NCBI GenBank assembly: GCA_017473775.1
Contig: JAFUJH010000050.1
Location: 3,455-67,454 of the forward strand
Source: Ruminococcus sp.
GTDB taxonomy: Bacteria; Bacillota; Clostridia; Oscillospirales; Acutalibacteraceae
Reading direction: 5' to 3'
Length of the DNA: 64,000 nucleotides
Shown: positions 38,706-53,571 of the stretch, piece after piece
Numbering within the stretch: the stretch's first letter is position 1
How the letters are laid out: every line of letters starts with the position of its first letter
Position numbers and translations under genes: made by a program
The notes under the pieces: model-generated
The model's database searches: none
The model's input: only the letters and a program-made list of their open reading frames with translations
Told to the model about the DNA's origin: nothing

Positions 38706-38832
38706 ATTTAATTACCACCCTTTTGAATTATTTTCACATATATCGTACCAATAAATACCAAAAAAGTCAATAGATTACGATATGGAACACAAGGTTGATT
38801 TTATCGACAAAAATAGACAGGAGCTGAAATCT

Positions 38833-39429
38833 ATGATGAATTACATATGGGCAGGGATGATAATAATAAGTCTGGTCTTTGCATTGATTACAGGAAACAC
38901 AGCACAACTGTCTGATGCATTGATATCCGGTGCTGATGATGCAATACAGCTGTTACTTGGAATACTGGGGATAATGTGTTTCTGGTTGGGGCTTATGGAG
39001 ATTGCAAAGAGGGCAGGGCTCACGGATTTGCTGGCGAAGATGTTCTCGCCAATACTCAGACCGCTGTTTCCCAATGTGCCGAAAAACTCTGAGGCAATGC
39101 GGTATATGAGTCTTAATCTGAGTGCAAATCTGTTAGGACTCGGTAACGCGGCAACTCCCTTCGGACTTGAGGCGATGAAGGAGCTTCAAAAGCTCAATCC
39201 CATAAGGGACAGGGCAACAGATGCACAGCTTATGTTTGTGGTGCTTAACACGGCATCAATTCAGCTTTTGCCTACGACCTTGTGTGCATACAGGGCAACC
39301 TACGGCAGTGAGCGGCCCTTTGAGATAATCCACTGTGTGTGGATAACCTCAGTTATAGCTCTTTTGGCAGGAATCATAGTTGCAAAGGTGTTCTGTGCAG
39401 GCAAAGAAAAAGAGCAGTTAAGGAGGTAG
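38833..39429 (+). CDS. spmA: Spore maturation protein A (nucleoside-recognition-domain membrane protein)
   Basis: MMNYIWAGMIIISLVFA N-terminus, Gate-domain pattern, paired with spmB. Confidence 0.8.
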   Translation: MMNYIWAGMIIISLVFALITGNTAQLSDALISGADDAIQLLLGILGIMCFWLGLMEIAKRAGLTDLLAKMFSPILRPLFPNVPKNSEAMRYMSLNLSANLLGLGNAATPFGLEAMKELQKLNPIRDRATDAQLMFVVLNTASIQLLPTTLCAYRATYGSERPFEIIHCVWITSVIALLAGIIVAKVFCAGKEKEQLRR

Positions 39430-39432
39430 TCT

Positions 39433-39942
39433 GTGGAAATTATAGTACCCTTGGTGGCAGTGGTGTTTATAGTGTTCGGACTTGTGAAGAAGGTAGGTGT
39501 CTTTGATGCTTTTCTCTCAGGTGCAAAGGAGGGACTTCACACAGCGTATATGATAGCACCCACCCTTGTGGGACTTATCACTGCAGTGACAATGCTCAGA
39601 GCAAGCGGAGCCATAGATATGCTGACACAGCTTATTACTCCTGTAGCCGAGAGGCTGGGATTCCCTGCGGAGATTGTGCCTGTGGCGGTGCTAAGACCTA
39701 TATCGGGAGGCGGCTCCACCGCCTTGCTTGTGGGAATACTTGAGAAGTTCGGCCCTGACAGCTTTGCAGGAAGAATCGTGTCTGTGATGGCAGGGTCAAC
39801 GGAGACCACCTTCTATGCAATAGCGGTGTATTACGGCAGTGTAGGCATAAAGAAAACACGGCACACACTCCTTGCAGGACTATGTGCCGATTTTACAGCG
39901 GTGGTGTTTTCGGTGCTGACTGTGAGATTGTTTTTTACATAG
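39433..39942 (+). CDS. spmB: Spore maturation protein B
   Basis: GTG start, 169-aa membrane protein immediately after spmA. Confidence 0.8.
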   Translation: MEIIVPLVAVVFIVFGLVKKVGVFDAFLSGAKEGLHTAYMIAPTLVGLITAVTMLRASGAIDMLTQLITPVAERLGFPAEIVPVAVLRPISGGGSTALLVGILEKFGPDSFAGRIVSVMAGSTETTFYAIAVYYGSVGIKKTRHTLLAGLCADFTAVVFSVLTVRLFFT

Positions 39943-39995
39943 AAGTGTAAGCCTGACGGGGCGTCGAGGCACTGTCCCCTACGAAATATGATAGA

Positions 39996-41384
39996 TTATC
40001 TGAGTCTCAGCACCTTATTGATAAAGGCTTTGCCATTAAAGGGAATAAGGGGATAGAGGTAGCTTTTGCCTGATACGGTTTTGTTAGTGAGCAGGAGCAC
40101 TGCTGTGATAACAACACCTGCGATAAATCCCCAGAGGTTAAACAGGGATGTGAGTATCAACAGCATTATTCGGATGAACTTGACGCAGTAGCCCAGCTCG
40201 TAGTTTGGCTGTGTGAAGCTTGCAAGGGTTGCAAATGCCATATATAGAATTGCGTGGGTTGAAAACCAGCCCACATCAATGGAGAACTCTGACAGTGCAA
40301 TTGCACCGATGATGCCCATTGTACCCGATAGGGTTGTGGGTGTGTTGAGGGAGGCAAGCCGCAGTCCGTCAATGGCAAGCTCCAGTATTATAAGCTGCCA
40401 GAAGAAGGAGATGTTTTGCTCCTCGGCTACAACCACAAAGCGGAAGTAGTCGGGGACGAGGTTCGGGTTTTGCTGTGCAAGGAGCCACAGGGGAGTTATG
40501 AACACAGAACTTAATAGGATGAGGAATCTTGCAATGCGCAGGTATGAGCCTGTGAAGGGCGGAAAGTAGTAATCGTCTGCCTCCTCGGTTACATCGAAAA
40601 TCGAGGTCGGCAGTATCAGTGCTGAGGGGGAGTTGTCCACCAGTATGATAATGTTACCCTTTATGGCGTTGGCGGCGGCTGAGTCGGGACGCTCTGTGTA
40701 TTTTATTTTTGGGAACGGATTGAACCATTTTCGCGGATAGATTGCTTCTACGAGGCTCTGTTGATTCATGGCAAGTGAATCTACCTTGACATTTTCTATT
40801 CGCTGTGTGATGGATTTGAGCAGTTTGTGGTCAACCTTGTCCTCCATATAGCACAGCACCACATCTGCTTTTGAGGTGCGGCTGACAGAGAAGGGTTTGA
40901 CCGTGAAGTTTACATCTCTGATTCGTCGTCTCATCAGGGCAATGTTGCTGATGATGGTCTCTACAAAGCCGTCCTTACTGCCACGCATAACCTTGTCGGT
41001 ATCAGGCTCGCTGGTCTGACGCTGAGGATAGGTACGGGTGTCCATCATAATTGCACAGTCAAAGCCGTCAATGAACAGAGCACTGATTCCGCTTAAAATG
41101 TTCTGGGTAATTATATTTATGTCTTTCTCTGTGTTGACCTCGATGTAGGGTACACAGGTTTTTGAGAAGGTGTCTGCGTCCTTCATTACGCTTTCGTCCT
41201 TGAGCCCGTAGAAGAAAATCATCAGCTTGCCCATAAAGGTGTCCTTTACAAGGCCGTCTATGGAGTAGATTCGGGCTTCCTTGTTGCATATTACGATGTC
41301 ACGGCGGATGATGTCAAAGCTTTCATCGGCACGGAGCACCTTGTCTATTATTTCTTTGTTTTTAGTTAGATCTTTACTGAGCAT
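39996..41384 (-). CDS. GerA-family spore germination protein (SpoVAF/GerAA-like)
   Basis: 462 aa with a soluble N-domain and a C-terminal 4-5 TM region. Contains motifs typical of the GerA family (PQRQTSEPDTDKVMRGSKDGFVE..., NSPSALILP). Confidence 0.8.
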   Translation of the reverse strand: MLSKDLTKNKEIIDKVLRADESFDIIRRDIVICNKEARIYSIDGLVKDTFMGKLMIFFYGLKDESVMKDADTFSKTCVPYIEVNTEKDINIITQNILSGISALFIDGFDCAIMMDTRTYPQRQTSEPDTDKVMRGSKDGFVETIISNIALMRRRIRDVNFTVKPFSVSRTSKADVVLCYMEDKVDHKLLKSITQRIENVKVDSLAMNQQSLVEAIYPRKWFNPFPKIKYTERPDSAAANAIKGNIIILVDNSPSALILPTSIFDVTEEADDYYFPPFTGSYLRIARFLILLSSVFITPLWLLAQQNPNLVPDYFRFVVVAEEQNISFFWQLIILELAIDGLRLASLNTPTTLSGTMGIIGAIALSEFSIDVGWFSTHAILYMAFATLASFTQPNYELGYCVKFIRIMLLILTSLFNLWGFIAGVVITAVLLLTNKTVSGKSYLYPLIPFNGKAFINKVLRLR

Positions 41385-41444: not shown

Positions 41445-41525
41445 GTAGGGAACGGCATTGCCGGTCCGTGGTTTCCTAAATATGGTGACTTAGAAGTTTC
41501 GGACGACCATTGGTCGTCCCTACGC
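41445..41525. repeat. Inverted doublet of type B REP-like hairpins (REPIN-like)
   Basis: GTAGGGAACGGCAttGCCGGTCCg (41445-41468) and cGGACGACCAtTGGTCGTCCCTACgc (41500-41525) face each other across a 31-nt spacer. Confidence 0.8.
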
Positions 41526-41600
41526 TATTTTCAGGGAGCCTGTTTTCAGGGAGTCTTATAGGGATTGAAAATAGAAAAAATTTAAAAAATTATTTGAAAG

Positions 41601-41630
41601 TTGCATAGAAATATGCAATTTTTTTGTTTT
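41601..41630 (+). promoter_or_regulatory. Palindrome / weak terminator-like hairpin just upstream of the terminase genes
   Basis: TTGCATA gaaa TATGCAA followed by TTTTTTTGTTTT. No plus-strand gene lies upstream. Confidence 0.4.
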
Positions 41631-41675
41631 TATGGGGTTATGTCGGAGCACTTAACAAGAACAGGAGGAGATTGA

Positions 41676-42170
41676 GTGAGAAAAAAAGGACTGACTCCAA
41701 GAGAAAGAGAATTCTGCAGGCAGTATATCTGTCTGGGTGATTCAAAGACAGCGGCGGCTTCTGCAGGCTACAGCAAAAACCCCGAGGGTAAGGGGGAGGA
41801 GCTTCTGTGCCGTGAGGATATTATGGCAGAGCTTGGCAGGCTGTGTCAGCTTAAAAAGCAGACTGCGGCTGAGCTTGCGCGGACAGGGTATCGTCGGCTT
41901 GCCTTTGGCAGTATTGCTGATGCGGTGTCCCTGCTTTATATGGACAGCCCCTCGTCGGAGCAGCTTAAAAAGATGGATCTTTTTTCTGTGGCGGAAATAA
42001 AACGCCCCAAGGACGGGTCTATGGAGATTAAGTTCTTTGACAGGCTGAAGGCTCTTGAAAAGCTGACGGAGGGAGTGCTTGAGGACAGGGAGATTTCCCC
42101 TGTGTACGAGGCTATCCGTCAGGGTGCGTTGGCACTTGGAAGCAGTGAGGTCGGGTCCGATGAAACTTAA
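41676..42170 (+). CDS. Terminase small subunit
   Basis: GTG start behind AGGAGGA. LTPREREFCRQYI...GDSKTAAASAGYS is typical of the Terminase_2 family. Confidence 0.75.
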   Translation: MRKKGLTPREREFCRQYICLGDSKTAAASAGYSKNPEGKGEELLCREDIMAELGRLCQLKKQTAAELARTGYRRLAFGSIADAVSLLYMDSPSSEQLKKMDLFSVAEIKRPKDGSMEIKFFDRLKALEKLTEGVLEDREISPVYEAIRQGALALGSSEVGSDET

Positions 42171-43434
42171 AGCTTTCTCCAAAAAACAGATGCTTGCACT
42201 TACTTGGTGGGAGGCGGAGTCAAGGTATAAGGATTGTGACGGAGTGATATGCGACGGAGCGGTAAGGTCGGGTAAGACCTTCTGTATGGGGCTGTCATTT
42301 ATTATATGGGCGTTTTACCGATTTTCAGATGCTTCCTTTGCCATATGCTCCAAGACAATTCGTTCTGTCAGACGAAATGTGACGACTCCTATACTGCCGG
42401 TACTGAAGGAAATGGGATTTTCGGTAAAAGAGAATGTATCGTCCAATTACCTGCAAATTGCCTTTGAGGGCAGAGAAAACAGATTCTACCTTTTCGGAGG
42501 CAAGGACGAGTCCTCTCAGTCGCTTATTCAGGGAATGACCCTGTCAGGTGTACTCCTTGATGAGGTGGCGCTGATGCCCCGTTCCTTTGTGGAGCAGGCA
42601 CTTGCCAGATGTTCTGTTGACGGCTCCAAGTTCTGGTTTAACTGTAACCCTGAGCATCCTGCTCACTGGTTTTACAGAGAGTGGATAAAGAAGAAAAAGG
42701 AGAAGAATGTTCTGTACATTCATTTCCTTATGGACGACAATCCGTCCCTGTCCCATGATATACGCAAAAGGTATGAGAGCTTGTATTCGGGGAGCTTTTA
42801 CAGAAGATTCGTAAAGGGTGAATGGACGGCGGTGTCGGGAGCGGTGTACCCCTTTATGGATAAGGAGGAGGCATTCTGCGTGGTGCCTGAGCCTCCTTTT
42901 GAGGATTACGCCGTGTCCTGTGATTACGGAACAGTGAATCCTGCTTCCTTTGGCTTATGGGGACTTAAATCAGATGTGTGGTACAGAATTGACGAATACT
43001 ACTACGATTCCAGAAAGGAGGGTCAACAGCGGACTGACGAGGAGCATTACAAGGCTCTTTGTGAGCTTGCAGGGGGTAGGAAGCTCTCCCGTGTAGTTGT
43101 TGACCCTTCTGCCGCAAGCTTCATTCAGGTGATAAAGCGACACGGAGAGTACGAGGTGAAGCCTGCCAAAAACTCGGTGACAGACGGCATACGAAGTGTG
43201 ACCTGTGCGCTTAAAGAGGGCAGGATAAAAATCTGCAGAGGCTGTGCGGACTCGGTAAGGGAGTTTTCGCTTTATCGATGGGATGAGCGTGAGGGCGTGG
43301 AGTCACCCGTCAAGGAGAATGACCACGCAATGGACGATATAAGATATTTCGTCACAACAATTTTAGAAGACGGCGGTGAGGAGTTCTTTGCCTTTGCCGC
43401 TGACAGGAGGAAAAGCTGTGAAGTTATTTTCTAA
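42160..43434 (+). CDS. Terminase large subunit (PBSX family)
   Basis: Walker A GAVRSGKT, Walker B LLDEV, and a C-terminal nuclease region. Overlaps terS by 11 nt. Confidence 0.85.
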   Translation: MKLKAFSKKQMLALTWWEAESRYKDCDGVICDGAVRSGKTFCMGLSFIIWAFYRFSDASFAICSKTIRSVRRNVTTPILPVLKEMGFSVKENVSSNYLQIAFEGRENRFYLFGGKDESSQSLIQGMTLSGVLLDEVALMPRSFVEQALARCSVDGSKFWFNCNPEHPAHWFYREWIKKKKEKNVLYIHFLMDDNPSLSHDIRKRYESLYSGSFYRRFVKGEWTAVSGAVYPFMDKEEAFCVVPEPPFEDYAVSCDYGTVNPASFGLWGLKSDVWYRIDEYYYDSRKEGQQRTDEEHYKALCELAGGRKLSRVVVDPSAASFIQVIKRHGEYEVKPAKNSVTDGIRSVTCALKEGRIKICRGCADSVREFSLYRWDEREGVESPVKENDHAMDDIRYFVTTILEDGGEEFFAFAADRRKSCEVIF

Positions 43435-44563
43435 GAAAAGCAGAGCACAGCAGGCAGGTGTACAGACAGCAGTGAAAGGTACTGTAGGTGTGCACCCCTT
43501 CACAAGCCTTGACAGGTATTCTCCGAAATCTTACGCGGAGCTGGAGCTTTACTCCACGCTCAGGGAGGCTGTGCCTGTAATTGATGCGGCGGTATGCAAG
43601 CTTGTACGACTTGTGGGAGGCTTTGAGCTAAAGGCTGAGGATATGAGATTCCAGAAGCCTCTGGAGCAGTTTGCACAGAGTGTAAGGGTAGGAGCAGGCG
43701 GAGTATCACTTAACTGCTTTGTAAACCGATACCTTGACCAGCTTCTCACCTACGGTTGTGCTATAGGTGAGATAGTGCCCAAAAGCGATATGCGTGGAAT
43801 AGAGGCACTTTACAATGCATCCCTTGAGGATGTGGCGATTGTAAGCGGTGATAATCCCCTTGAAACGCTGGTGTGCCGCAGGGATATCAACAACACTGTG
43901 CTTCAGAATCAGGGGCTGATACTTTCCAGTTTGCTTAATCCCGAGGCAGGCAGTGTACAGGGTAATTCCCTGCTGAAGGGCCTGCCCTTTGTAAGCTCCA
44001 TACTGCTGAAGATTTTAGGCTGCATGGGCAACAACTTTGACCGTGCAGGCAACATCCGCTATGCGGTTACATATAAGCCCTCGGATTCATCGGGTGTAAA
44101 TGCCAGACACAGGGCAGAGGAGATTGCAAGAGAGTGGTCAAGGGCTATGAGGGATGATTCAAGAGTCTGTGACTTTGTAGCTGTGGGTGATGTGTCCGTT
44201 AAGGTTATCGGCGGTGATGCCCAGATTCTTGACTATGATATCCCCATGAGGCATATCCTTGAGCAGATTGTGTCCAAGCTGTGTATTCCGCCGTTTTTGC
44301 TGGGACTTTCCTGGTCGAGCACAGAGCGGATGAGCACTGTGCAGGCAGATATACTCACCAGCGAGCTTGAGTATTTCAGAACACTTCTGACACCTGTAAT
44401 CAGGCAGATTGCACAGACTCAGCTCAGGTTTCTGGGCAGTGACTGCGGTGTTGAGGTTATTTGGAATAACATATCGCTTCAGGATGAGACCGAGCTTGCA
44501 AATGCGAGACTTATGAACGCCAGAGCACAGGAGATTGAGAATGCGTTGGAGGTGACACATTGA
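43418..44563 (+). CDS. Portal protein
   Basis: Call rests on position after terL, size (381 aa from the GTG behind AGGAGG) and general portal-like composition. Confidence 0.65.
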   Translation: MKLFSKKSRAQQAGVQTAVKGTVGVHPFTSLDRYSPKSYAELELYSTLREAVPVIDAAVCKLVRLVGGFELKAEDMRFQKPLEQFAQSVRVGAGGVSLNCFVNRYLDQLLTYGCAIGEIVPKSDMRGIEALYNASLEDVAIVSGDNPLETLVCRRDINNTVLQNQGLILSSLLNPEAGSVQGNSLLKGLPFVSSILLKILGCMGNNFDRAGNIRYAVTYKPSDSSGVNARHRAEEIAREWSRAMRDDSRVCDFVAVGDVSVKVIGGDAQILDYDIPMRHILEQIVSKLCIPPFLLGLSWSSTERMSTVQADILTSELEYFRTLLTPVIRQIAQTQLRFLGSDCGVEVIWNNISLQDETELANARLMNARAQEIENALEVTH

Positions 44564-45537
44564 GGTCAGGAGAGATTATCAAAGCTAAGAATACTGCAGT
44601 GACACCGCAGGAGCTGGAGCTTATCAACAGCTACACACGCCGACCCTTTACTGAGGATGAGGTGTATGTGTTCACTGTGGTACTGTGCGACAACGATGTG
44701 GACAGGGACTTTGAGCGGTTTACCGTGGAGGCTCTGTTCCAGATGGAGAAGCTCTTTGTGGGCAGGACGGGTATTTACGACCACAGCCCCAGAGCTAACA
44801 ATCAGACCGCGAGAATCTTCAATTGTGCGGTGGAGGCTGTGCAGGGCAGAAAAACCGCCACAGGGGATGACTACTTCCGACTAGTGGCAAGAGCATATAT
44901 GCCCAGATGCAAGTCTACCGAGGATGTGATTATGCAGATTGAAAGCGGTATCAGAAAAGAGGTCAGTGTAGGCATCAGTGCAAGCCGCAGTGTGTGCTCT
45001 GTGTGCGGAGGTGAAAGACACTCTGCTCCCTGCGGACACATCAAGGGTCAGGTGTACAATGGAGAGGTTTGTTACTTTGAGCTTTGCGATGTAAGTGATG
45101 CATACGAGTGGAGCTTTGTTGCAGTGCCTGCACAGCGAGAAGCAGGGGTTATCAAGTCCTTTGGCAATACCCCGAAAAAGGAGTTTGGAAATATGGAAGA
45201 AATTATGAAAAGTCTTTCTCAGGGCGAGAGCGTTACCCTGTGCGTCAGTGACGCCAAGCGTCTGTATGAGCACATTACAGGTCTTGAGAAAAGAGCTATG
45301 GCGGGTGACGAGTACAGAAAGGAGCTGGAGGGTGAGGTGCTGAGACTCTCTGCCCTTGCACAGACAGGTATCTCCGGAGATACCATGGCAAGTGCTATGA
45401 AGGGCTTATCACTTGCTCAGCTCAGAGAGTTTGCGTCTGCGTATAAAAAGAAGGCAGAGGAGGCCTTTATGCCTCAGACAAAGGCTCCGCAAAAATCCTG
45501 CACATCCGTTGCAGGTAATAAAGAATTCAGAATCTGA
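44560..45537 (+). CDS. Prohead protease/scaffold-like protein (XkdF position)
   Basis: TTG start overlapping the portal stop. N-terminal globular domain with a CxxC...C.H cluster and a C-terminal coiled-coil, scaffold-like region. Confidence 0.5.
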   Translation: MRSGEIIKAKNTAVTPQELELINSYTRRPFTEDEVYVFTVVLCDNDVDRDFERFTVEALFQMEKLFVGRTGIYDHSPRANNQTARIFNCAVEAVQGRKTATGDDYFRLVARAYMPRCKSTEDVIMQIESGIRKEVSVGISASRSVCSVCGGERHSAPCGHIKGQVYNGEVCYFELCDVSDAYEWSFVAVPAQREAGVIKSFGNTPKKEFGNMEEIMKSLSQGESVTLCVSDAKRLYEHITGLEKRAMAGDEYRKELEGEVLRLSALAQTGISGDTMASAMKGLSLAQLREFASAYKKKAEEAFMPQTKAPQKSCTSVAGNKEFRI

Positions 45538-45548
45538 CGGAGGTTAAT

Positions 45549-45881
45549 ATGAATATCAGTTTTAATGGTTTTATGGAAAACACAGTTACCTTTCAGTGTG
45601 ATGAAAGTGTCAAGGCAGGTGCACCTGTAAGCATCTGCCAAAGCGGTATGGTAACAGCCTGTGCAGATGGCGACAAAATCTGCGGTGTGTGCCTGAGTGT
45701 ACGCGAGGGCTACGCGGCGGTCCAGCTCAAGGGCTTTGTTGAGTTACCTGTAAGCGGTGAGGTGGCTACAGGCTATGTGAGCATTGCATCCGATGCTGAC
45801 GGTAAGGTGAAGGTAAGCGACAGCGGTGTGCAGGTGCTGTGTGTAAGCACAGAGGGCGACACTGCAGGCTTTATTCTTTAA
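45549..45881 (+). CDS. Small head-associated protein (DUF2190-like, decoration/cement candidate)
   Basis: 110 aa, Gly/Val-rich beta protein located between the scaffold and capsid genes. Confidence 0.45.
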   Translation: MNISFNGFMENTVTFQCDESVKAGAPVSICQSGMVTACADGDKICGVCLSVREGYAAVQLKGFVELPVSGEVATGYVSIASDADGKVKVSDSGVQVLCVSTEGDTAGFIL

Positions 45882-45901
45882 TGTAAAGGAGAAGATATAG
45901 A

Positions 45902-46912
45902 ATGGCTAATTATGAAAAAATCTCTCTGGAGAGAGGTATGTATTCCTACAGCGGCAAGAGTATGACAGATATCTTAGAGGAGCTTGACCCCTCTGCTAAT
46001 TATGCAGGCAGTGAGCTTGAGGGTCTGGATGCATTCTCCCGTCAGCTCAAGCGTTTTGACATCAGAGTAAGCGGTGCAAAGTCTGACCCTGTGGAGAAGT
46101 TCTTTGCTACTACTGATTCTGCGGCACTGTTCCCTGAATATGTGTGCCGTGCAGTAAGACAGGGTATGGAGCAGGCAGATGTTCTGTCCGATATTATTGC
46201 GGCTAAGACTACAATCAACGGTATGGACTACAGAAGCATCACATCAACTCCCACTGATGACGAGAAGTCACTGGTAAGGGTATCTGAGGGTGCGTATATT
46301 CCTCAGACAAAGGTATCTACACAGGAGAATCTGGTGAAGCTTCACAAGCGAGGCAGAATGCTTGTAACCTCTTACGAGGCGTTGCGTTTTCAGCGACTTG
46401 ACCTGTTCACAGTGACACTGAAGCAGATTGGTGCTTACATTGCCCGTGCACAGCTCAAGGATGCAATTGATGTGCTTATCAACGGCGACGGTAACGGTAA
46501 TCCCTGCAAGGGTATCACAGCAGTGAACACAGGCGATATCTCTTACAGCGACCTTGTGTCTCTTTGGGCTGAGCTTTCTCCCTATGAGATGACAACAATC
46601 CTTGCTCCTACAGATGCTATGGTGAAGCTCCTGTCTGTGTCAGAGCTGAAGGATGCAACAGCTTCTCAGGACTTCCACGGCTCGGGCAAGATGGTGACAC
46701 CTCTGGGTGCAAAGCTTATCCATACTACTGCAATGCCTGAGGGTACTATCATTGCTATTGATAAAAACTGTGCACTGGAGATGGTACAGGCAGGTGAGAT
46801 TATCACTGACTATGACAAGCTTATCGACAGACAGCTTGAGCGTGCTACTATCAGCTGTATCTCAGGCTTTGCTAAAATCTTCACCGATGCAGGTGTGAAG
46901 CTCACCTACTGA
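45902..46912 (+). CDS. Major capsid protein (HK97-fold family)
   Basis: 336 aa. Position and sequence pattern are typical of PBSX/XkdG-like capsid proteins. Confidence 0.75.
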   Translation: MANYEKISLERGMYSYSGKSMTDILEELDPSANYAGSELEGLDAFSRQLKRFDIRVSGAKSDPVEKFFATTDSAALFPEYVCRAVRQGMEQADVLSDIIAAKTTINGMDYRSITSTPTDDEKSLVRVSEGAYIPQTKVSTQENLVKLHKRGRMLVTSYEALRFQRLDLFTVTLKQIGAYIARAQLKDAIDVLINGDGNGNPCKGITAVNTGDISYSDLVSLWAELSPYEMTTILAPTDAMVKLLSVSELKDATASQDFHGSGKMVTPLGAKLIHTTAMPEGTIIAIDKNCALEMVQAGEIITDYDKLIDRQLERATISCISGFAKIFTDAGVKLTY

Positions 46913-46927
46913 TAAGGAGGTTTAGGC

Positions 46928-47296
46928 TTGAGACTGAACGAGGTTATTAACAGGTTTGCGCTTGTGTCGGGTCTTGAGCCCGGTGAGGTTACAAGATGGA
47001 CTCCTGTTTGCATTGATGCGATGAACGAGTTAAAGAGCAAGCTCCTGCCTGATGCACTGAGCAGTGAGGAAAACATCCTGAGGCTGTCTGCCTGTGCAGG
47101 AGTGCTTGCCTACTACAGATACTGCCTGTATAAATCGGGCAGTGAGCCTAAGTCCTTTACTGCAGGAGCAGTGAGCGTTACTGTGTCTGAGCTTGATGTG
47201 GAGAAGGCGTACAAGCTCTGGGAGTTTGAGAAAAAGTCTGTGGAGAATCTGCTTGCATCCTCTGAGGATTTCTGCTTTAAGAGGGTGAAGGTATGA
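46928..47296 (+). CDS. Head-tail connector protein
   Basis: TTG start behind AAGGAGG, 122 aa, XkdH position. Confidence 0.5.
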   Translation: MRLNEVINRFALVSGLEPGEVTRWTPVCIDAMNELKSKLLPDALSSEENILRLSACAGVLAYYRYCLYKSGSEPKSFTAGAVSVTVSELDVEKAYKLWEFEKKSVENLLASSEDFCFKRVKV

Positions 47297-47652
47297 GTGT
47301 GTATAAATGCATCGATGATATGATTTATAAGTACGGCTGTGATGTAACTGTTAAGGATAAGTTCGGCTCCTTTGACGGTAAGGCGATAATCCAGCCGCTG
47401 ATGTATAAAAACAAGATGTACCTTGGCGGAGAATACCTGCCTGCCGGTTACTATGATGCAGGGCACTACCTGATGATTGCACCCTGTGACGGATTTATCC
47501 GCGACTACAGAAGCACCCTTATTATTCAGGGCGATGTGACCTATACCGTAAAACGCAGTGAGAGAGTCAGTGCAGATAACACAGACCTGTACATATGGGC
47601 AGTGCTGACTCTCTACTCTGCACCGTCGGAGGATGATTATGCTCAGACCTGA
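47293..47652 (+). CDS. Head-closure / neck protein
   Basis: ATGA overlap with the upstream gene, 119 aa, XkdI position. Confidence 0.45.
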   Translation: MSVYKCIDDMIYKYGCDVTVKDKFGSFDGKAIIQPLMYKNKMYLGGEYLPAGYYDAGHYLMIAPCDGFIRDYRSTLIIQGDVTYTVKRSERVSADNTDLYIWAVLTLYSAPSEDDYAQT

Positions 47653-48421
47653 GAATGAATTGGATTTATTTGTAAGAGGACTCAAAAAGCTTGAGTCCTT
47701 CAAGGGTGTCAGGTTTATCCACGCCAGAAAACCCATAATGCCTGAAAAGCCTGTGGAGAGCTTCTTCGTTGCCTGCTCGGTAGGTACAGTGCATAAGGAA
47801 AAGAATACAGCAGGCAACAGAAGGTTTGAGGCACAGCTTGAGTTTAATATCTATGCTCCCTATACAAAGGGTGCAAGGGAGCTCGGAGTGCTTGCGGTGA
47901 GCCTAATGGACGGGCTTGACAGACTTGACTCTGAGGGTAAGCTTTCGGACATAAAAATATCTGACCCTGCATATGACAAAAACCTTTGTACTCAGTACCA
48001 GAAGGTGGAGGCAACGCTTTTGTGGGAGATAGTACCTGAGACTCCTGAGGAGTTGCCGCTGAGCAGTACAATGCCCATTACTGTCAACGGGGTACAGGTA
48101 CAGGCGGTGTCTGCCGTATATCAGGCGAGCGAGGATGTGTATGTGCTCAGAGAGCTCCTTGCAGGAGAAACAGACAGGTACATATCCAAGGGGAAGGCTT
48201 ATAAGCTGAGCATCACCGTGGAATCGGTGAGGGACCCCTTCAGGGATATGGGAACCTTTGATATTTCCTATGCTTTGGCAGGCACGGTGCGTAGCTTTGC
48301 AGGATGCAGAGTGACTAAAATAACAGAGAGCAGAAATTCAGACAATGTGCCTGTGAGGGAGTATGAGTTCTTCACAAGGCAGAGTGATTTCAGAGAGGAG
48401 AGCGGTGAGCAGAATGAATGA
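47633..48421 (+). CDS. Neck/tail-completion-like protein with an extra C-terminal domain of about 120 aa
   Basis: 262 aa (alternative ATG at 47639 behind GGAGGA). The N-terminal half resembles tail-completion proteins. The C-terminal half has no assigned family. Confidence 0.45.
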   Translation: MIMLRPENELDLFVRGLKKLESFKGVRFIHARKPIMPEKPVESFFVACSVGTVHKEKNTAGNRRFEAQLEFNIYAPYTKGARELGVLAVSLMDGLDRLDSEGKLSDIKISDPAYDKNLCTQYQKVEATLLWEIVPETPEELPLSSTMPITVNGVQVQAVSAVYQASEDVYVLRELLAGETDRYISKGKAYKLSITVESVRDPFRDMGTFDISYALAGTVRSFAGCRVTKITESRNSDNVPVREYEFFTRQSDFREESGEQNE

Positions 48422-48542
48422 ATATTTTTCAGATGTGGCATATATGCAGGAGTCAGCAGAGGAGCTGAGCCTTGCTTTTGAGCGTGACTCAAGACGCTAC
48501 AGCCGCTTTATTTCTGAGGATGAGGAGGATGCACAGTGGTAA
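48414..48542 (+). CDS. 42-aa acidic ORF occupying the slot where sheath/tube/tape-measure genes normally lie
   Basis: MNEYFSDVAYMQESAEELSLAFERDSRRYSRFISEDEEDAQW. Its ATG overlaps the upstream stop (ATGAATGA). Not in the ORF track because it is under 60 aa. Confidence 0.35.
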   Translation: MNEYFSDVAYMQESAEELSLAFERDSRRYSRFISEDEEDAQW

Positions 48543-48550
48543 TCTCAAAT

Positions 48551-49054
48551 ATGCGGTTTGATTCCTTTGAGTGGGCTCACAATCCCCTCACGGTTCAGGT
48601 TACACACAAACGGAGAATGACTCAGCAGAATATGGCAGGAGGCGGCAGCTTTGTAAGCAATGCAGGCTGTGAGCTGAAGGTTATAAAGGGCAAAGGTGAG
48701 CTTGCAGGAGAGAACTGCACACAGGAGTTTCAGCGGCTTTGCGATTTGTTTGAAAGAGGAAAAAGAGGACTCCTGACTCTGCCCTTTATGGCTCCTTTTT
48801 ATGCATACTTTACGGATTTGTCGCTGACAGGTGAGCCTACCCCTGAGCTTATTACTTATACCTTTGAGTTTACCCAGGCAGAGAACTCAGAGTATGCCCT
48901 CACAGCTGACGGAGAGGCTGTTGTTAAGGAGTCAGAGACTCTGTTTGATATAGCTTACAGATGCGGTGTGGATGTAGAGGAGCTTGTAAGGCTCAATCCG
49001 CAGATAAAGCGTCCTGATGAATTAACTGCAGGAGAGGTGGTGAGGCTGTGCTGA
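48551..49054 (+). CDS. LysM-domain baseplate/tail protein (XkdP / P2 gpX-like)
   Basis: C-terminal LysM (TLFDIAYRCGVDVEELVRLNPQIKRPDELTAGEVVRL). Confidence 0.65.
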   Translation: MRFDSFEWAHNPLTVQVTHKRRMTQQNMAGGGSFVSNAGCELKVIKGKGELAGENCTQEFQRLCDLFERGKRGLLTLPFMAPFYAYFTDLSLTGEPTPELITYTFEFTQAENSEYALTADGEAVVKESETLFDIAYRCGVDVEELVRLNPQIKRPDELTAGEVVRLC

Positions 49055-49983
49055 CCTTTATGGGAGTAAACACAAGGGGAGAGAGGCTCAGCCTCCCTTC
49101 CCCTGTGGAGGCGGTGCTGTGTCGGGATGCAGGTACTCCTGCAGACAGCCTGACAGCAGTGTTCCCCTGTGTTATTTACGATGAACTTTGCTATATAGCC
49201 GTGTATAAAGACGGCAAAGAAATTTTCAGCGGTATTGTGGACGAGCAGATTACAGTCTCGGGAGAGAATGTAAAGACTAAGCTTGTATGCAGAAGTATGG
49301 CGGCACTGCTTGTTGACAACGAGGCACAGCCTTGTACCTTCAGGGATGTGTCGGCTTCTCTAATCTTCAGCAGATATGTAAAGCCCTTGGGGTTTGCAAG
49401 CTTTACAGGTGAGGACAAAACTCTCAGGGGTGAGTTCAGGGTAGCAAAGGGTGAGTCCTGCTGGCAGGTGCTTGAGGATTTCTGCAGTAAAGCCTATGGT
49501 GTGTTTCCCGTTGTGGAAGGCAACAGGGTGTATATGCAGGGCACAGAGGGTAACAAAGAATGTCTTGTGTTCTCAGATAAAGGTGACGGTATTGCCTACA
49601 GCAACCTTGAGCACAACCTGCTTCGTTGCAAGCTTATATCCTGTGTCAGGTGCAAGGTGACACAGGGAGAGGATTATACCTCATATATCTGCAATGAGGA
49701 TGCACAGGCAAGAGGTGTGCTCAGAGAGAGGTACTTAAATGCCGATGAACTGTCAGGCAAGAGCCTTGCTGATGCAGACAAGCTTATAGTATCAGCAAGA
49801 GCCAAAGCAGAGAAGTTTACATTGCTTGTGCCTCAATGTATGACGGATATACCGGGTGCACAGGCGGTTGTGTGTGACAGTGCTGTGGGTGAACACAGGG
49901 GGCTTTATGTGACAGGTATAAGGTACAGCCTGAACAGTACGGGAGAGACAACAAGACTTACATTGATGAGAAAGGAGAACTGA
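49048..49983 (+). CDS. Baseplate hub protein (XkdQ / late-control gpD-like)
   Basis: 311 aa. Overlaps the LysM gene and follows it as in PBSX/P2. Confidence 0.55.
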   Translation: MLTFMGVNTRGERLSLPSPVEAVLCRDAGTPADSLTAVFPCVIYDELCYIAVYKDGKEIFSGIVDEQITVSGENVKTKLVCRSMAALLVDNEAQPCTFRDVSASLIFSRYVKPLGFASFTGEDKTLRGEFRVAKGESCWQVLEDFCSKAYGVFPVVEGNRVYMQGTEGNKECLVFSDKGDGIAYSNLEHNLLRCKLISCVRCKVTQGEDYTSYICNEDAQARGVLRERYLNADELSGKSLADADKLIVSARAKAEKFTLLVPQCMTDIPGAQAVVCDSAVGEHRGLYVTGIRYSLNSTGETTRLTLMRKEN

Positions 49984-49984
49984 T

Positions 49985-50329
49985 ATGTGGCTTACATCCT
50001 TTATGGCAAAAAATATTAAAGATAAAAAGGCAGTGTCCGCAGGAAGCGTCACAGCGACTCGGGACGGTAGGGTTGAGGTTGACTCAGCCTCCCGTCATCT
50101 TAATTTGCCTGTGGTTGCACCCTACGGAGTTGTGTATGTGCCCCCTGTAGGAGAGCAGGCGGTGCTGGTGTCTACATCCATGGGAGATGCCTGTGTAGGA
50201 GTTGTGAATCAGAAAGCACAGGGCCTCAGTCCCGGTGAGCTTATGCTGTGCTCTGCAGGAGGAGCTTCTATAGTTCTCAGAAACGACGGCACTGTGCTTA
50301 TTAACGGAACGGAATTCGGAGGTGCATAA
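49985..50329 (+). CDS. Baseplate spike/plug protein (gpV/Gp45-like, XkdR position)
   Basis: 114 aa with the pattern GDACVGVVN...PGELMLCSAGGASIVLRNDGTVLING. Confidence 0.55.
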   Translation: MWLTSFMAKNIKDKKAVSAGSVTATRDGRVEVDSASRHLNLPVVAPYGVVYVPPVGEQAVLVSTSMGDACVGVVNQKAQGLSPGELMLCSAGGASIVLRNDGTVLINGTEFGGA

Positions 50330-50670
50330 TGGATATAAAAATCAAAGACGGAGATATAGTGCTTGACAGCACAGGAGAAGCAGTTGAGATTCAGGGGGAT
50401 GAAGCTGTGCTGCAGCAGGTTATTATGTGCATTACCGCAGAAAAAGGCGGTTTTATATATAACAAGGATATGGGTGTGCCGCCTGTGACGGATGTATCGG
50501 GCGAGCGTGAGTGCAAACGCCTTGAGGCGTTGCTTCGTGAAGCAGTAAGCTCTGTGGAGGGTGCAAGGTTGTACCTTGACGAGGTGGAGCAGCTTGTAGA
50601 CGGCAGAAGCCTTGCAAGCATTACAGTGACCTATAAGGATAGCATTATGCCTGTGGAGGTGATTATCTGA
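50329..50670 (+). CDS. Baseplate wedge protein (gpW/gp25-like, XkdS position)
   Basis: 113 aa with a TAATG overlap. Sits immediately before the baseplate J gene. Confidence 0.55.
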   Translation: MDIKIKDGDIVLDSTGEAVEIQGDEAVLQQVIMCITAEKGGFIYNKDMGVPPVTDVSGERECKRLEALLREAVSSVEGARLYLDEVEQLVDGRSLASITVTYKDSIMPVEVII

Positions 50671-51737
50671 TGGAAAGCTACAACAGCATCCTCAGCAGGA
50701 TGAAGAATAAATACGCAGAGCTGTCGGGTAATACCCCCTCGGATAATTCTGATATATCTGTGAGGCTTTCTGTGCTTGCAGGAGAGATATACTCATCCCT
50801 TGTGAATATGGAGTGGCTCAAGCGTCAGATGTTTGCATCCACTGCACAGGGGGAGTACCTTGACCTTCACGCACAGGAAAGAGGTCTTGTGAGGCGTCAG
50901 CCATCCTGTGCGGTGGGCAGTGTAATCTTCTCTGTTTCAGAGCCTGCAGTTGCGGATATTAATATCCCTGCAGGTACAGTGGTGGCTACACAGGAGGAGA
51001 CACCACTCAGGTTTGAAACCACGCAAGCGGTGGTTATCCCTGTGGGAGCAACCTCTGCTCACGCACAGATAAAAGCAACGGACACAGGCAGAAAATACAA
51101 TGTATCCGCAGGCAAGATTACGGTTATGGTTACACCTCCTGCTTCTGTGGAGTCGGTCACAAACCCTGACCCGTGTATATCGGGTACGGATACAGAAGGT
51201 GACGAAAGCCTCAGAGCAAGGATAATCGAAAGCTACAAATTTGCATCCAACGGCACAAACTGCGCTTATTACAAGACAGAAGCCTTACAGGTTGAGGGGG
51301 TTGCAGGTGCAGGGGTTGTGCCCAGAGGCAGAGGTGCAGGCACTGTGGATGTGTATATCTCAGGCGAAGGCACAGAAGTGTCTGAGGAGGTTATTGCACA
51401 GGTGCAGGAGAAGCTTCAGCTGTTGCGTGAGGTTAATGTGGATGTTATGGTGTACTCAGCAGAGAGCGAGAGCGTTAATATGCTCATTTATCTTGATGTA
51501 GAGGACGGCTACGAGTTTGACGAGGTAAAGGATAACTGTACTGATGCCATTACGGAGTACATAGGCAGTCGGGGAGTAGGCGGCTCGGTGCTTCTCAATC
51601 AGATTGTGGATTTACTGTTTCACCTTGAGGGTGTCAGGGATTTCTATATCCCCTCAGGCTCAAACTATAACATCAGATGTGCCGAGAACAAATTCCCTGT
51701 GGCAGGTAGTATCAGATTTGTAGAGGGTGTTGAATAA
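50670..51737 (+). CDS. Baseplate J-like protein (XkdT)
   Basis: 355 aa with a Baseplate_J pattern (GEYLDLHAQERGL...). TGATG overlap. Confidence 0.7.
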   Translation: MESYNSILSRMKNKYAELSGNTPSDNSDISVRLSVLAGEIYSSLVNMEWLKRQMFASTAQGEYLDLHAQERGLVRRQPSCAVGSVIFSVSEPAVADINIPAGTVVATQEETPLRFETTQAVVIPVGATSAHAQIKATDTGRKYNVSAGKITVMVTPPASVESVTNPDPCISGTDTEGDESLRARIIESYKFASNGTNCAYYKTEALQVEGVAGAGVVPRGRGAGTVDVYISGEGTEVSEEVIAQVQEKLQLLREVNVDVMVYSAESESVNMLIYLDVEDGYEFDEVKDNCTDAITEYIGSRGVGGSVLLNQIVDLLFHLEGVRDFYIPSGSNYNIRCAENKFPVAGSIRFVEGVE

Positions 51738-52306
51738 TGAGCGTACTGGATTCATTGATTCTAAGGCATCAGCCCTTACGGATATATAATATAACCGAGG
51801 ACAGCAACCTTCATCGCGAGCTTGAGTGCTACGCCGAGGGGCTTACACTGTTAAGGCAGGAGCTTGGTACTATGCTCACAGAGTGTTTCTATGCAACAGC
51901 CGAGAGCTACGGGCTTGAAAATGCAGAGCGGATGTGGGGTAGGGTGAGAGATGACCTGAGCCTTCAAAAACGCCGACAGATGCTTATAGACAGAAGCTCC
52001 TTCGGATATGATGATTTTACTTTGCAGGGTATACAGAAGCTGATGAGCTTTCTGGGTATAGACGGAATTGTGTATGAGTATCCCATGGCTTTGAGAATGG
52101 TGATAGATACCAAGAGTAAGGATTACACTCAGGGTCAGAAGAACTGGATATATGCACAGCTTGCCGCTCTGCTTCCTGCTCATTTGGAGATTGATGTGCT
52201 GTGGGGAGACTTCTGCTTTAATGATATAGAGAATAAAAATCTTACCTTTGACCTGATGGATGCAAAGGGGCTCATCTGGTCAGAGATTGATGTATACGAG
52301 GAATAA
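51737..52306 (+). CDS. Tail/baseplate protein, DUF2313 (XkdU / YmfQ / gpI-like)
   Basis: 189 aa with TAATG overlap and an N-terminal pattern typical of YmfQ-like proteins. Confidence 0.6.
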   Translation: MSVLDSLILRHQPLRIYNITEDSNLHRELECYAEGLTLLRQELGTMLTECFYATAESYGLENAERMWGRVRDDLSLQKRRQMLIDRSSFGYDDFTLQGIQKLMSFLGIDGIVYEYPMALRMVIDTKSKDYTQGQKNWIYAQLAALLPAHLEIDVLWGDFCFNDIENKNLTFDLMDAKGLIWSEIDVYEE

Positions 52307-52317
52307 GGAGAGTAAAT

Positions 52318-52788
52318 ATGCCATCAGCAAACAAAACGGAACGGTTGGGGCTTAACCTGTGGGAAGGCACAGACAGACCCCAGAGAAACGACTTCAACAG
52401 TGATAACGCCATCATTGAGCAGGTGCTTGGTGACCATATGGAGGATACGGATATCCACCTGACCTCTGATGAAAAAACCAGAGTCAAAAGACCTATGGTG
52501 ACAGTGTCGTACCTTGGTGACGGGGAGGCAGAGCGTGTAGTTACACTGCCTGCTGTGGTCACATCGGTGATTATCTTTTGCGACAGCACTCCCTGTGCGG
52601 TTATGGATTCTGCCACAGATTGTGTCAGAAACTATATGGGCTTTTCTATGTACGGGGCAGGGTCATCTGCAGGTGTGGACTTTACACTCAGTTCACTTAC
52701 GGTGACTCAGGATGCAGAGGCAACAAACGGAGCCATGACCTGTCTTAACGAGGACTCAAAGACCTACAGGGTAATCGGCTTCAGATAA
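52318..52788 (+). CDS. Very short tail-fibre-like protein
   Basis: 156 aa. The N-terminus KTERLGLNLWEGTDRPQRNDFNSDNAIIEQVL resembles the conserved N-terminal adaptor of Firmicute phage fibres. Last gene of the cluster. Confidence 0.45.
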   Translation: MPSANKTERLGLNLWEGTDRPQRNDFNSDNAIIEQVLGDHMEDTDIHLTSDEKTRVKRPMVTVSYLGDGEAERVVTLPAVVTSVIIFCDSTPCAVMDSATDCVRNYMGFSMYGAGSSAGVDFTLSSLTVTQDAEATNGAMTCLNEDSKTYRVIGFR

Positions 52789-52813
52789 AACAATATAACA
52801 AATTGGGGATTGT

Positions 52814-52850
52814 TCGCCGTCTTGTGTATCAAGGCGGCGATTGTTTATGT
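52814..52850 (+). terminator. Terminator ending the phage-like operon
   Basis: TCGCCGTCTTG tgtat CAAGGCGGCGA, followed by a T-rich tail. Confidence 0.65.
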
Positions 52851-53203
52851 GTAAATCCTTGTGCAGAAAATATGCGTGAAGAAACCCACCTACCATTCGA
52901 GGGGCTTTTTTGTGGTGATTGGCATTATTTGCACAGATTATGGCAGTCAATTGACGAGTTCTACAAAAGATTTAGGATATTTTTGGTAGGTTTGATGTTT
53001 ACAATTTTGTTGTAAATTTTACAATCCATGATATAATTATATGTATAAAATAGCAAAATTATCTAAACTGGTATCATAATGTTTGCTATTTTTATTAAGT
53101 TTTTCCTCTCAGAGCCGATTTTCACTGAGATTTGGCTTTTTACATAAATCGTCACGGTTTTACTGTGGCTATACATTATTATGTGGCTGTGGAAAATATC
53201 CGT

Positions 53204-53337
53204 GCCTCCCTCTGATGAGGGAGGTGGATTTTGCCGAAGGCAAAAGACGGAGGGAGAGAAAAATGCAGATGCATTATGAAGTTTTAACTACCCCTCAGTC
53301 ACCTGAGGTGACAGCTCCCCTGACAAGGGGAGCCATG
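53204..53337 (+). repeat. Type A modular hairpin repeat, full copy
   Basis: gcctccctctgatgagggaggtggATTTTGCCgaaGGCAAAAgacggagggagag ... cccctcaGTCACCtgaGGTGACagctcccctgacaaggggagccatggg. Confidence 0.9.
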
Positions 53338-53571
53338 GGTGCCACTTTATAGACAAACTAAAATATAGGTAGATAATGCCGAGGCTTTATCTGGCAGCCT
53401 GTATAATGTGCGAAGTATGGATATTCACTGTGCTTCGCAAGGAGTACACCGTACTTTGCGTATTGTATAGGTTGTCCGAAACCTCCGGTGGTCAGACGGC
53501 AGGCAAAGACTAATGGCATTTCGCAAATAACAAAAAACAAAACTTAAAATCTTTAAGGAGGAAAAATTCTT

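Follow-up and report, generated by a model that had tools for sequence, protein, structure and literature searches.

A candidate gene transfer agent-like element of the PBSX lineage with a predicted, strongly reduced tail in Oscillospirales

The window analyzed here, a 64,000-nt stretch of contig JAFUJH010000050.1 from a gut Ruminococcus sp., carries on its + strand an 11.1-kb cluster of 17 co-oriented open reading frames (ORFs; 41676-52788), tightly packed in the order head, neck and then Mu/P2-type baseplate. Judged by its genes alone, the cluster appears to be a PBSX-lineage, gene transfer agent (GTA)-like element with an unprecedented reduced tail. The reading that we favor, and hold to be probable though far from secure, is that of a domesticated, vertically inherited particle of the PBSX lineage, probably a GTA, with a non-contractile tail about one ring long. 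An original prediction had described head and baseplate modules joined with no sheath, tube or tape measure between them, and had offered two explanations: a prophage remnant with a clean internal deletion, or a domesticated particle with no tail or a minimal one. The minimal-tail form of the second explanation stands and its no-tail form falls, because the cluster has a tube domain, a LysM-type tube initiator and a conserved 42-aa remnant of a tape-measure protein (TMP). Homologues of tube and TMP thus lie inside the cluster, and none of the sheath does; their presence sharpens the domestication reading rather than overturning it.

Tail genes between the neck and the baseplate

The ORF at 47633-48421 encodes a 260/262-aa protein with no Pfam or PHROG match. 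Its AlphaFold2 (AF2) model has a predicted local distance difference test score (pLDDT) of 73 and comprises two beta-rich domains with a disordered linker between them. Foldseek matches of this model include the tail terminators lambda gpU (3fz2, 1.7e-5), that of the phage 812 neck (8q01, 1.1e-5) and T5 p142, as well as tube/Hcp folds and two-domain tube-fold proteins, and its matches in BFVD are "tail completion" and "tail tube" proteins. The orthology of the two halves is settled by profile-profile comparison with the genes flanking the sheath gene in sheathed relatives. The N half aligns with the gene preceding the sheath (hhalign Prob 99.5, E 5e-23) and the C half with the tube genes following it (Prob 98.7, E 4e-16, 117 columns), and a negative control of tube against terminator gives Prob 0.1. 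By these sequence comparisons, the ORF is a tail terminator (N half) fused to a tail tube protein (C half), and the earlier statement that the cluster has no tube was wrong. Terminator (~145 aa) and tube (~120 aa) are separate genes in many relatives (34 sheathless loci), and at 50% identity the fusion family has 62 representatives, among them fused, N-only and C-only forms.

The claim that a tape measure is lacking was likewise mistaken. What had been described as a 130-bp interval between the modules is a coding gene, translationally coupled at both ends: its start codon (ATG) lies across the stop of the fusion gene, its own stop overlaps the start of the LysM gene, and it is served by a Shine-Dalgarno sequence of its own. 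In 33 loci, this position is taken by an ORF of 39-73 aa whose product has the motif ERDSRRY. The 42-aa product aligns with the C-terminal end of the TMPs (95-183 aa) found in sheathed relatives (Prob 96.7, E 4e-10), a likeness confined to a 27-column C-terminal motif, and its ratio of nonsynonymous to synonymous substitution rates (dN/dS) is 0.05-0.09. Sequence and synteny together indicate that the 42-aa ORF is a miniaturized TMP retaining the C-terminal ERDSRRY motif of its family.

The LysM protein, encoded immediately downstream, yielded an AF2 model (pLDDT 78) whose Foldseek matches include a phiCD508 needle/baseplate LysM-type chain (9g8s_S, 6e-9), baseplate chains of the antifeeding prophage (AFP), the Photorhabdus virulence cassette (PVC) and phage Mu, and the contractile injection systems of Anabaena, Streptomyces and Algoriphagus. 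The PDB gives the sister chain, 9g8s_T, the name "Tail tube initiator". On the strength of these matches and that name, the LysM protein is read as a tube initiator of the Afp7/Pvc7/Mu gp43 class. Its N-domain gave no hhalign signal against tube or terminator profiles, the link between the folds coming from AF2 and Foldseek only. On the head side, the two neck proteins presumed to act as adaptor and stopper (p122 and p119) are conserved in relatives, the former in both position and sequence; neither has a Pfam or PHROG match, and neither gave anything usable against the PDB in profile checks, which here and below used profiles made from orthologues.

The absence of a sheath and a tail chaperone, by comparison, was borne out. 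In all six frames of the 64-kb window, a family sheath hidden Markov model (HMM) built from ten relatives and tblastn returned only matches with E > 0.1. No cluster protein has a Pfam or PHROG sheath match, and there is no space for a sheath gene within 46912-48536. Relative to a PBSX-like prophage, the cluster has the tube, though fused to the terminator; instead of a long TMP and a chaperone, the window holds a 42-aa TMP homologue only and no chaperone homologue. Integrase and lysis genes are also absent, as predicted, with no such domains in the flanking ORFs. Scans of the cluster and of flanking ORFs turned up neither a lysis cassette nor xre/xpf-type regulators, and an intrinsic terminator directly follows the last gene, p156. 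As in GTAs, structural and packaging genes are thus present without replication, integration or lysogeny genes.

Distribution, reduction series and fixed chromosomal site

The portal family was surveyed with an alignment-based scan of one genome per species. It occurs at at least 579 loci, of which 80 were retained; among the matches listed all are Oscillospirales, and the 80 retained belong to Ruminococcus, Acutalibacteraceae or Oscillospiraceae. At 90% identity, at least 7471 portal clusters are present in the protein database. An alignment-based scan of IMG/VR gave 361 contigs, and single-protein IMG/VR scans with the portal and with p262 (the fusion protein) gave nothing, their patterns being too specific. 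Hundreds of Oscillospirales species from gut and rumen have the element as a fixed part of their genomes.

A census of layouts covers 74 informative loci of 84 (80 species genomes, three virome records and L004). Sheathless layouts account for 56 of the 74, with terminator and tube as separate genes in 34 and fused in 22. A sheath, a tube, a chaperone and a short TMP (95-183 aa) are found together in 9/74 loci, and another 9/74 consist of a head operon only, which ends after the terminator. The distance from the major capsid protein (MCP) gene to the LysM gene is ~1.4-2.0 kb in sheathless loci, with the exception of L031 (2.35 kb). Two loci are intermediate: L034 lacks a chaperone but retains sheath and tube along with a TMP of 54 aa, and L031 lacks the sheath but retains a tube, together with a 148-aa protein and a TMP of 56 aa. 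Together, the loci form a reduction series that runs from sheath with 95-183-aa TMP, through sheath with 54-aa TMP and the sheathless split form, to the sheathless fused form. The length of the TMP homologue tracks the presence of sheath and chaperone along this series, and closely related elements show a mixture of the fused and the split form. One IMG/VR locus, L160 (IMGVR_UViG_2585428093_000001), has a 134-aa terminator followed by the LysM protein, no tube or mini-TMP ORF, and a shortened Baseplate_J. L145 is another further-reduced variant, as is L161, which is apparently frameshifted. The sheathed relative L089, on a 1.2-Mb contig, is full of frameshifts and was not used as evidence.

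The census bears on how long the tail might be. Were the tube to polymerize, the tail would be longer than one ring, short and siphovirus-like, and the 42-aa ORF would be an assembly factor rather than a ruler. A free tube in 34 of the 56 sheathless loci would allow this, and the narrow extent of the TMP likeness would suit it. Fused and split forms are so interspersed among close relatives as to suggest equivalent stoichiometry, however, and with no tail chaperone in the window and TMP length following sheath and chaperone, we consider a longer tail distinctly unlikely.

Two of the remaining layouts deserve description in their own right. The sheathed sisters (L090, L025, L036, L040, L052, L063, L076, L077 and L003) have unusually short TMP candidates of 95-183 aa, which implies very short contractile tails. 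The head-only operons, which comprise 8 genes from terS to the terminator and then give way to host genes, occur in L087/L088, L049, L059, L065, L068, L078, L081, L082 and L084; L087/L088 are from Ca. Fimenecus sp., which is very prevalent in the human gut. Tail and baseplate genes of the head-only loci would be elsewhere or absent, an arrangement that recalls, by analogy, the two-operon layout of FpGTA, the GTA of Faecalibacterium prausnitzii.

Recurrence of the arrangement at the same locus in relatives, a question raised alongside the original prediction, was confirmed: the element lies beside spmA/spmB and a GerA-family gene in >20 genomes, with low dN/dS. L004 has the identical 17 genes and the same flanks, with protein identities of 62-93%. 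Outside the window, 21 of the loci examined have a GerA-family gene in divergent orientation, 120-420 bp ahead of terS, at portal identities down to ~50%. The AbrB-like/spmA/spmB/GerA-family flanks are seen in L004-L007, L010, L013, L016, L018, L021-24, L029, L043, L056, L091 and L092. In L091 (Acutalibacteraceae) and L092 (Ruminococcus), the AbrB-like gene, spmA and spmB are upstream, the element ends at a 155-156-aa gene, and the downstream neighbors differ. Prophage calls from isolate genomes in IMG/VR are trimmed exactly from terS to p156 (10-12 kb), and the cluster has no other phage-like neighbors. The flanks in the window, in L091 and L092 and in the sheathed L090 contain neither integrase nor lysis genes; those of L090 consist of housekeeping genes (RecG/DHFR/ThyA-type).

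All cluster genes are under purifying selection. Against the close relative L085/L086 (dS 0.19-0.57), dN/dS is 0.03-0.23 for every gene, with 0.03 for the MCP, 0.15 for the fusion protein and 0.07 for the mini-TMP; comparison with L004 and L005 gives 0.05-0.29 for those genes whose dS is estimable. The most strongly constrained genes are those for terminase, portal and capsid (0.03-0.14), including terL at 0.07-0.11 and the MCP at 0.03-0.09. Cluster dS is similar to flank dS, and the protein identities of flank and cluster co-vary (Spearman 0.4-0.8). The combination of vertical inheritance, a fixed locus and purifying selection expected of a GTA is therefore found here.

These results leave the first of the originally proposed explanations unsupported. 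A decaying prophage remnant, in which an internal deletion took the sheath-to-TMP region and the rest is drifting to loss, would account for the sheath, chaperone, lysis, integrase and regulatory genes missing from the cluster, and some IMG/VR relatives (L161, L145 and L089) do look frameshifted or further reduced. A remnant would not be expected to show the same layout in 56/74 species-level loci and the same locus in >20 genomes, nor a dN/dS of 0.03-0.27 in all gene pairs but one, the 42-aa ORF included. Tube and TMP are moreover remodeled rather than deleted, and all junctions are coupled, which makes decay very improbable.

The fixed site also speaks to whether the cluster is one module of a larger phage or satellite, with the missing functions coming from other loci or from a helper phage and the particle spreading a specific mobile genome. 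Locus and synteny are fixed over deep divergence and co-diverge with host genes, integrase, replication and attachment features were not found around the cluster, and even the sheathed relatives are without lysogeny genes nearby. A terminator-tube fusion is in addition hard to square with a sheathed, multi-ring tail. Such a module is rather unlikely on these grounds, despite the head-only operons of Ca. Fimenecus and the other head-only loci (9/74 in all), the split of FpGTA into two operons 125 kb apart (PMC12946183), and searches of this genome that were confined to the window.

Proposed particle and comparison with known systems

The preferred reading, a domesticated GTA with a one-ring tail, can be set out as a particle model. 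The element would descend from a PBSX-lineage, myovirus-like ancestor and would have kept its DNA-filled head, with the tail becoming miniaturized and non-contractile. Fusion of terminator and tube would fix their stoichiometry at 1:1, and one tube subunit per terminator subunit implies a single hexameric tube ring. This ring would be stacked between the neck (portal, adaptor and stopper) and the initiator ring of the baseplate. A tape measure spans roughly 0.15 nm per residue; the 42-aa peptide, ~6 nm when extended, would span the lumen of the tube. The resulting particle would be podovirus-like, with a tail of about one ring, and could bind cells through the 156-aa fiber and the LysM domain. 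Opening would proceed through release of the spike rather than contraction of a sheath, the gp25-like protein being retained for wedge architecture rather than sheath nucleation. The host would provide control and release, and the conserved, terminator-like hairpin before terS suggests tight transcriptional gating. The most likely function is that of a GTA packaging host DNA, because constraint is strongest on terminase, portal and capsid, and genes for integration, replication, lysogeny and lysis are missing from the cluster.

The closest named system is PBSX of Bacillus subtilis, a defective, GTA-like prophage, and both elements are chromosomal and non-infectious. The large terminase subunit (TerL) scores 199.6 bits against the NCBIfam equivalog TIGR01547 (cutoff 105.05, E 1.1e-58), which assigns it to the PBSX family. 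Head order is the same (terS, terL, portal, XkdF-position protein, MCP and three neck genes), as is that of the tail end (LysM XkdP-like protein, XkdQ-like hub, small spike, gp25-like protein, Baseplate_J, gpI-like protein and fiber). Over ~28 kb, PBSX encodes XkdK as its sheath, XkdM as a free tube, XkdN as chaperone and XkdO as a TMP of 1332 aa, together with a holin and endolysin and xre/xpf regulators. In the 11.1-kb cluster, unlike PBSX, sheath and chaperone are absent, the tube is fused, the TMP has 42 aa, and no lysis or regulatory genes are adjacent. PBSX is best known for killing and less for productive transfer. It packages host DNA in 13.4-kb pieces.

This reputation of PBSX, the nearest named relative, would fit a domesticated particle with a role other than transfer, for instance killing or adhesion by a device that bears a capsid, or a structure tied to sporulation, with DNA packaging being incidental. 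The good conservation of baseplate, spike and LysM protein would suit such a role, as would the position of the cluster among sporulation genes. The strength of constraint on terminase, portal and capsid suggests, however, that DNA-filled heads matter, and a particle without a sheath is incapable of tailocin-style contractile puncturing. We regard a non-transfer role as unlikely, if worth keeping in mind.

The sheathed Oscillospirales sisters (such as L090, L025, L036 and L077) have orthologous head, neck and baseplate genes, with identities of 46-62% for portal, TerL and MCP, and are likewise chromosomal with no integrase nearby. They differ in having a ~350-aa sheath, a ~128-aa free tube, a ~130-aa chaperone and a 95-183-aa TMP, in occupying other chromosomal sites, and in lacking the TTGCAT..ATGCAA leader hairpin sequence. 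The baseplate genes follow the order of the Mu/P2 simple baseplate (Mu gp43-gp48): LysM/DNA_circ_N-type initiator, gp44-like, gp45-like, gp46/gp25-like, gp47/Baseplate_J and gp48. In Mu and P2, this structure nucleates a long tube and a contractile sheath, whereas that of the cluster would bear one tube ring and no sheath. GTAs of the RcGTA type, from Alphaproteobacteria, are ~15-kb head-tail clusters with a short tail, without replication or integration genes, vertically inherited and under purifying selection, and the genes for their regulation and lysis lie at other places. GTA neck and tube chains (6toa and 6tba) are among the Foldseek matches of the LysM model. RcGTA differs in its siphovirus-type tail, its other distal tip, and its unrelated lineage and host phylum, and packaging and transfer have been demonstrated for it.

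FpGTA also belongs to gut Oscillospirales. Its particles have small heads and no visible tail ("podovirus-like"), contain baseplate and fiber proteins, and package ~8.5-kb pieces of host DNA, and the element carries a holin and an endolysin (PMC12946183). Its MCP (RCH50849.1) is annotated as N4-gp56 family, whereas the present MCP matches only HK97-type models (PF25209/PF05065 and TIGR01554) and no N4-gp56 model. Membership in FpGTA was accordingly rejected on capsid family; the distinction is drawn from the FpGTA MCP annotation. Long-read virome work has reported GTA-like packaging of 4.6-8.9-kb pieces of host DNA to be abundant in Ruminococcaceae/Oscillospiraceae, with packaging genes identified for Faecalibacterium only and none for R. 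callidus, CAG-115 or Gemmiger (PMC12946183). The present cluster is a concrete candidate for packaging genes outside Faecalibacterium in the families of that study. Literature searches found no published description of the family reported here.

Several points weigh against a one-ring GTA. The element is known here from genes alone, and the hallmark of a GTA would be a head unable to hold the whole cluster that encodes it, here 11 kb. Where terminator and tube are split (34 loci), a free tube could polymerize past one ring. The AF2 models are moderate in confidence (pLDDT 73 for the fusion, 78 for the LysM protein), the neck proteins and p156 owe their presumed roles to position alone, and the Pfam matches of the gp25-like and gpI-like proteins fall under the gathering score. 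A sheath, a lysis cassette or a regulator could lie elsewhere in the genome, the search having covered the 64-kb window.

If particles are made, the cluster would be the first example found of a Mu/P2 baseplate hung from the neck by a single fused terminator-tube ring with a 42-residue TMP, and the extant intermediates would be a natural series in which a myovirus tail collapses to a podovirus-like one. Such a series would bear on how tail length and type evolve and on the role of a conserved baseplate core without a sheath. It might further be the missing basis of GTA-like packaging in gut Ruminococcaceae/Oscillospiraceae, and a sporulation-coupled GTA, whose particles are made late in the sporulating mother cell and set free when that cell undergoes programmed lysis. 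We offer this extension as speculation with a small chance of being right; coupling to sporulation would explain the absent holin and endolysin, the gated leader hairpin and the deep conservation beside spmA/spmB and the GerA-family gene.

Component genes, leader and genomic surroundings

Features of the cluster are listed in the table. All 17 ORFs predicted for the interval were found at their expected coordinates, the overlapping junctions, such as the 11-nt terS/terL overlap, had been described correctly, and profile and structure matches agree with the original assignment of the head module (terS, terL, portal, protease/scaffold, small head protein and MCP) and of the baseplate module (LysM, hub, spike, gp25-like, Baseplate_J, gpI-like and 156-aa protein).

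Table. Features of the cluster and its leader, with window coordinates and supporting evidence
Feature	Position	Strand	Evidence and remarks
Stem-loop GTTGCATA-GAAA-TATGCAAT (41600-41619), A-tract before, T-tract after	41600-41633	+	~55 nt upstream of terS
Conserved box GGGGTTATGTCGGAGC, family consensus ~TATAAGTGAGAGC	41635-41649	+	Conserved alignment columns; between hairpin and terS ribosome-binding site
terS, small terminase subunit, 164 aa	41676-42170	+	PF03592 1.3e-12; phrog_51, phrog_2606
terL, large terminase subunit, PBSX family, 424 aa	42160-43434	+	TIGR01547; phrog_2 6.7e-52; start overlaps terS by 11 nt
Portal, 381 aa	43418-44563	+	phrog_30703 1.7e-117
Scaffold/protease-like head assembly protein, XkdF position, 325 aa	44560-45537	+	phrog_16951 6.6e-97; kept in all relatives
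Small head protein, 110 aa	45549-45881	+	phrog_4588 "virion structural protein" 1e-16; phrog_673
MCP, HK97 fold, 336 aa	45902-46912	+	PF25209 4.7e-16; phrog_3922 5e-100
Neck protein 1, presumed head-tail adaptor, 122 aa	46928-47296	+	Position
Neck protein 2, presumed head-closure/stopper, 119 aa	47293-47652	+	Position
Fusion protein, N domain: tail terminator, gpU-like	47639-48031	+	AF2/Foldseek; hhalign
Fusion protein, C domain: tail tube protein	48071-48421	+	hhalign; Foldseek tube/Hcp folds
Miniature TMP, 42 aa	48414-48542	+	ERDSRRY motif; hhalign; synteny
LysM protein, tail-tube initiator (XkdP/Mu gp43/Afp7-like), 172 aa	48536-49054	+	C-terminal LysM 1.2e-8
Baseplate hub, Mu gp44/P2 gpD-like, 311 aa	49048-49983	+	phrog_177 3.9e-14
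Central spike, Mu gp45-like, 114 aa	49985-50329	+	phrog_25991; Mu gp45 profile match
gp25-like wedge, "sheath initiator" family, 113 aa	50329-50670	+	PF10934 9.7e-6; phrog_120 1.7e-9
Baseplate_J wedge, 355 aa	50670-51737	+	PF04865 1.5e-47; phrog_6 1.7e-68
gpI/Mu gp48-like wedge, 189 aa	51737-52306	+	PF10076 3e-4, sub-cutoff; phrog_521; L092 orthologue carries PF10076
p156, presumed short fiber/receptor-binding protein, last gene of operon, 156 aa	52318-52788	+	Position
Intrinsic terminator closing the operon	52814-52850	+	11-bp stem with 7 GC pairs, then T-rich tail; 26 nt past p156 stop

In the baseplate, profiles of the hub match 3d37 (Mu gp44-like, 1.2e-8), 3cdd (1.4e-5) and Mu gp44 itself (1wru, 1.8e-3), and that of the spike matches the Mu "baseplate puncturing device gp45" (9ki1_V, 1.1e-3, residues 26-109) weakly and in a consistent position. 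These matches and the canonical gene order identify the structure as a Mu/P2-type "simple" baseplate. Its conserved core is present (gp25-like protein, Baseplate_J, hub, spike and LysM initiator), the gp25-like and spike assignments being weak; the PF10934 match of the gp25-like protein is of sub-gathering score and covers the N-terminal half only. The N-terminal 43 aa of p156 match the N-terminus of the 998-aa phrog_33092, its profile has no match in the PDB, and its place as last gene is kept in relatives. Within the head, the 325-aa protein is a putative scaffold/protease, a function suggested by its position.

The portal family is named "serine/threonine protein phosphatase" in NCBI/PGAP output, both for the gene in the window and for P0007, P0053, P0060, P0084, P0099 and others. 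This misnaming is systematic and conceals the element in genome records, and virus databases routinely call the cluster a 10-12-kb "prophage" or "Bacteriophage sp.". Three virome records of the latter name (L001-L003; MT835508, MT835952 and MT835769) are fragments of bacterial chromosomes that contain the element together with host genes; L002 has the GerA-family gene, and L001 matches the Ca. Fimenecus chromosome of L087. These records are consistent with either host DNA within virus-like particles or contamination.

The stem-loop upstream of terS was aligned across 43 related loci. In this alignment 91% of cells are paired, compared with 30-48% in slid controls, and double-sided (compensatory) changes number 46 against 17.8 in shuffles, with 0/500 shuffles reaching 46. 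Stem variants include CAT/ATG, CAC/GTG, ACC/GGT and CCC/GGG, and the RNA fold has a minimum free energy of -17.7 kcal/mol (z = -2.4). Rfam gave no hits in the window at gathering thresholds, so the leader hairpin does not belong to a known family. Because the upstream gene is divergent, the hairpin is not the terminator of that gene. It is probably an intrinsic-terminator-like leader attenuator or insulator; alternatively, the palindrome could be an operator, such as an activator site centered near -41. The terminator-like hairpin is favored, because G-U pairs are tolerated and sheathed relatives have other hairpins and T-tracts in the same place; in the leaders of a few sheathed sisters, other hairpin/T-tract arrangements were seen by eye. 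A possible role of the conserved box is that of -10/start region for the promoter of the operon. Inspection by eye and a consensus scan found no convincing sporulation-sigma or sigma-70 promoter between hairpin and terS. Further upstream, the intergenic region between terS and the divergent GerA-family gene contains two more elements (41503-41554), a perfect palindrome of 19 nt, GGACGACCATTGGTCGTCC, and after it a tandem direct repeat of 15 nt, CTATTTTCAGGGAGC / CTGTTTTCAGGGAGT. In L004, the portion of the upstream region that was read also shows the right palindrome arm, GGTCGTCC.

The GC content of the cluster, when computed, is comparable to that of its flanks, and the original observation of no att-like repeats also held, with 0 direct repeat pairs bracketing the cluster. 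No tRNA genes were found in the window. Upstream neighbors are host genes (dCMP deaminase, AbrB-like, spmA, spmB and the GerA-family gene), and the remaining genes of the window are housekeeping. The site itself (38463-41384; AbrB/SpoVT-like, spmA and spmB) is deeply conserved across Ruminococcus and Acutalibacteraceae, with a solitary GerA-family (SpoVAF-like) gene present or absent, and a small acid-soluble spore protein gene lies near it in L004 and L092; conservation among such genes raises the question of a link to sporulation. Two ORFs of 70 and 89 aa after p156 (52803-53352) were rejected as genes, since they overlap the terminator or lie just beyond it and are uncalled in relatives. 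A 780-bp intergenic region with many promoter-like sites separates the cluster from its downstream neighbor, a 1991-aa protein (53572-59547) with a CotH kinase domain, CBM26 starch-binding modules and a Listeria-Bacteroides repeat, which is conserved in the closest genomes only and was rejected as part of the element. Elsewhere in the window, a BspA-type leucine-rich repeat protein with a type I dockerin (26019-27707) points to a cellulosome- or amylosome-bearing Ruminococcus as host.

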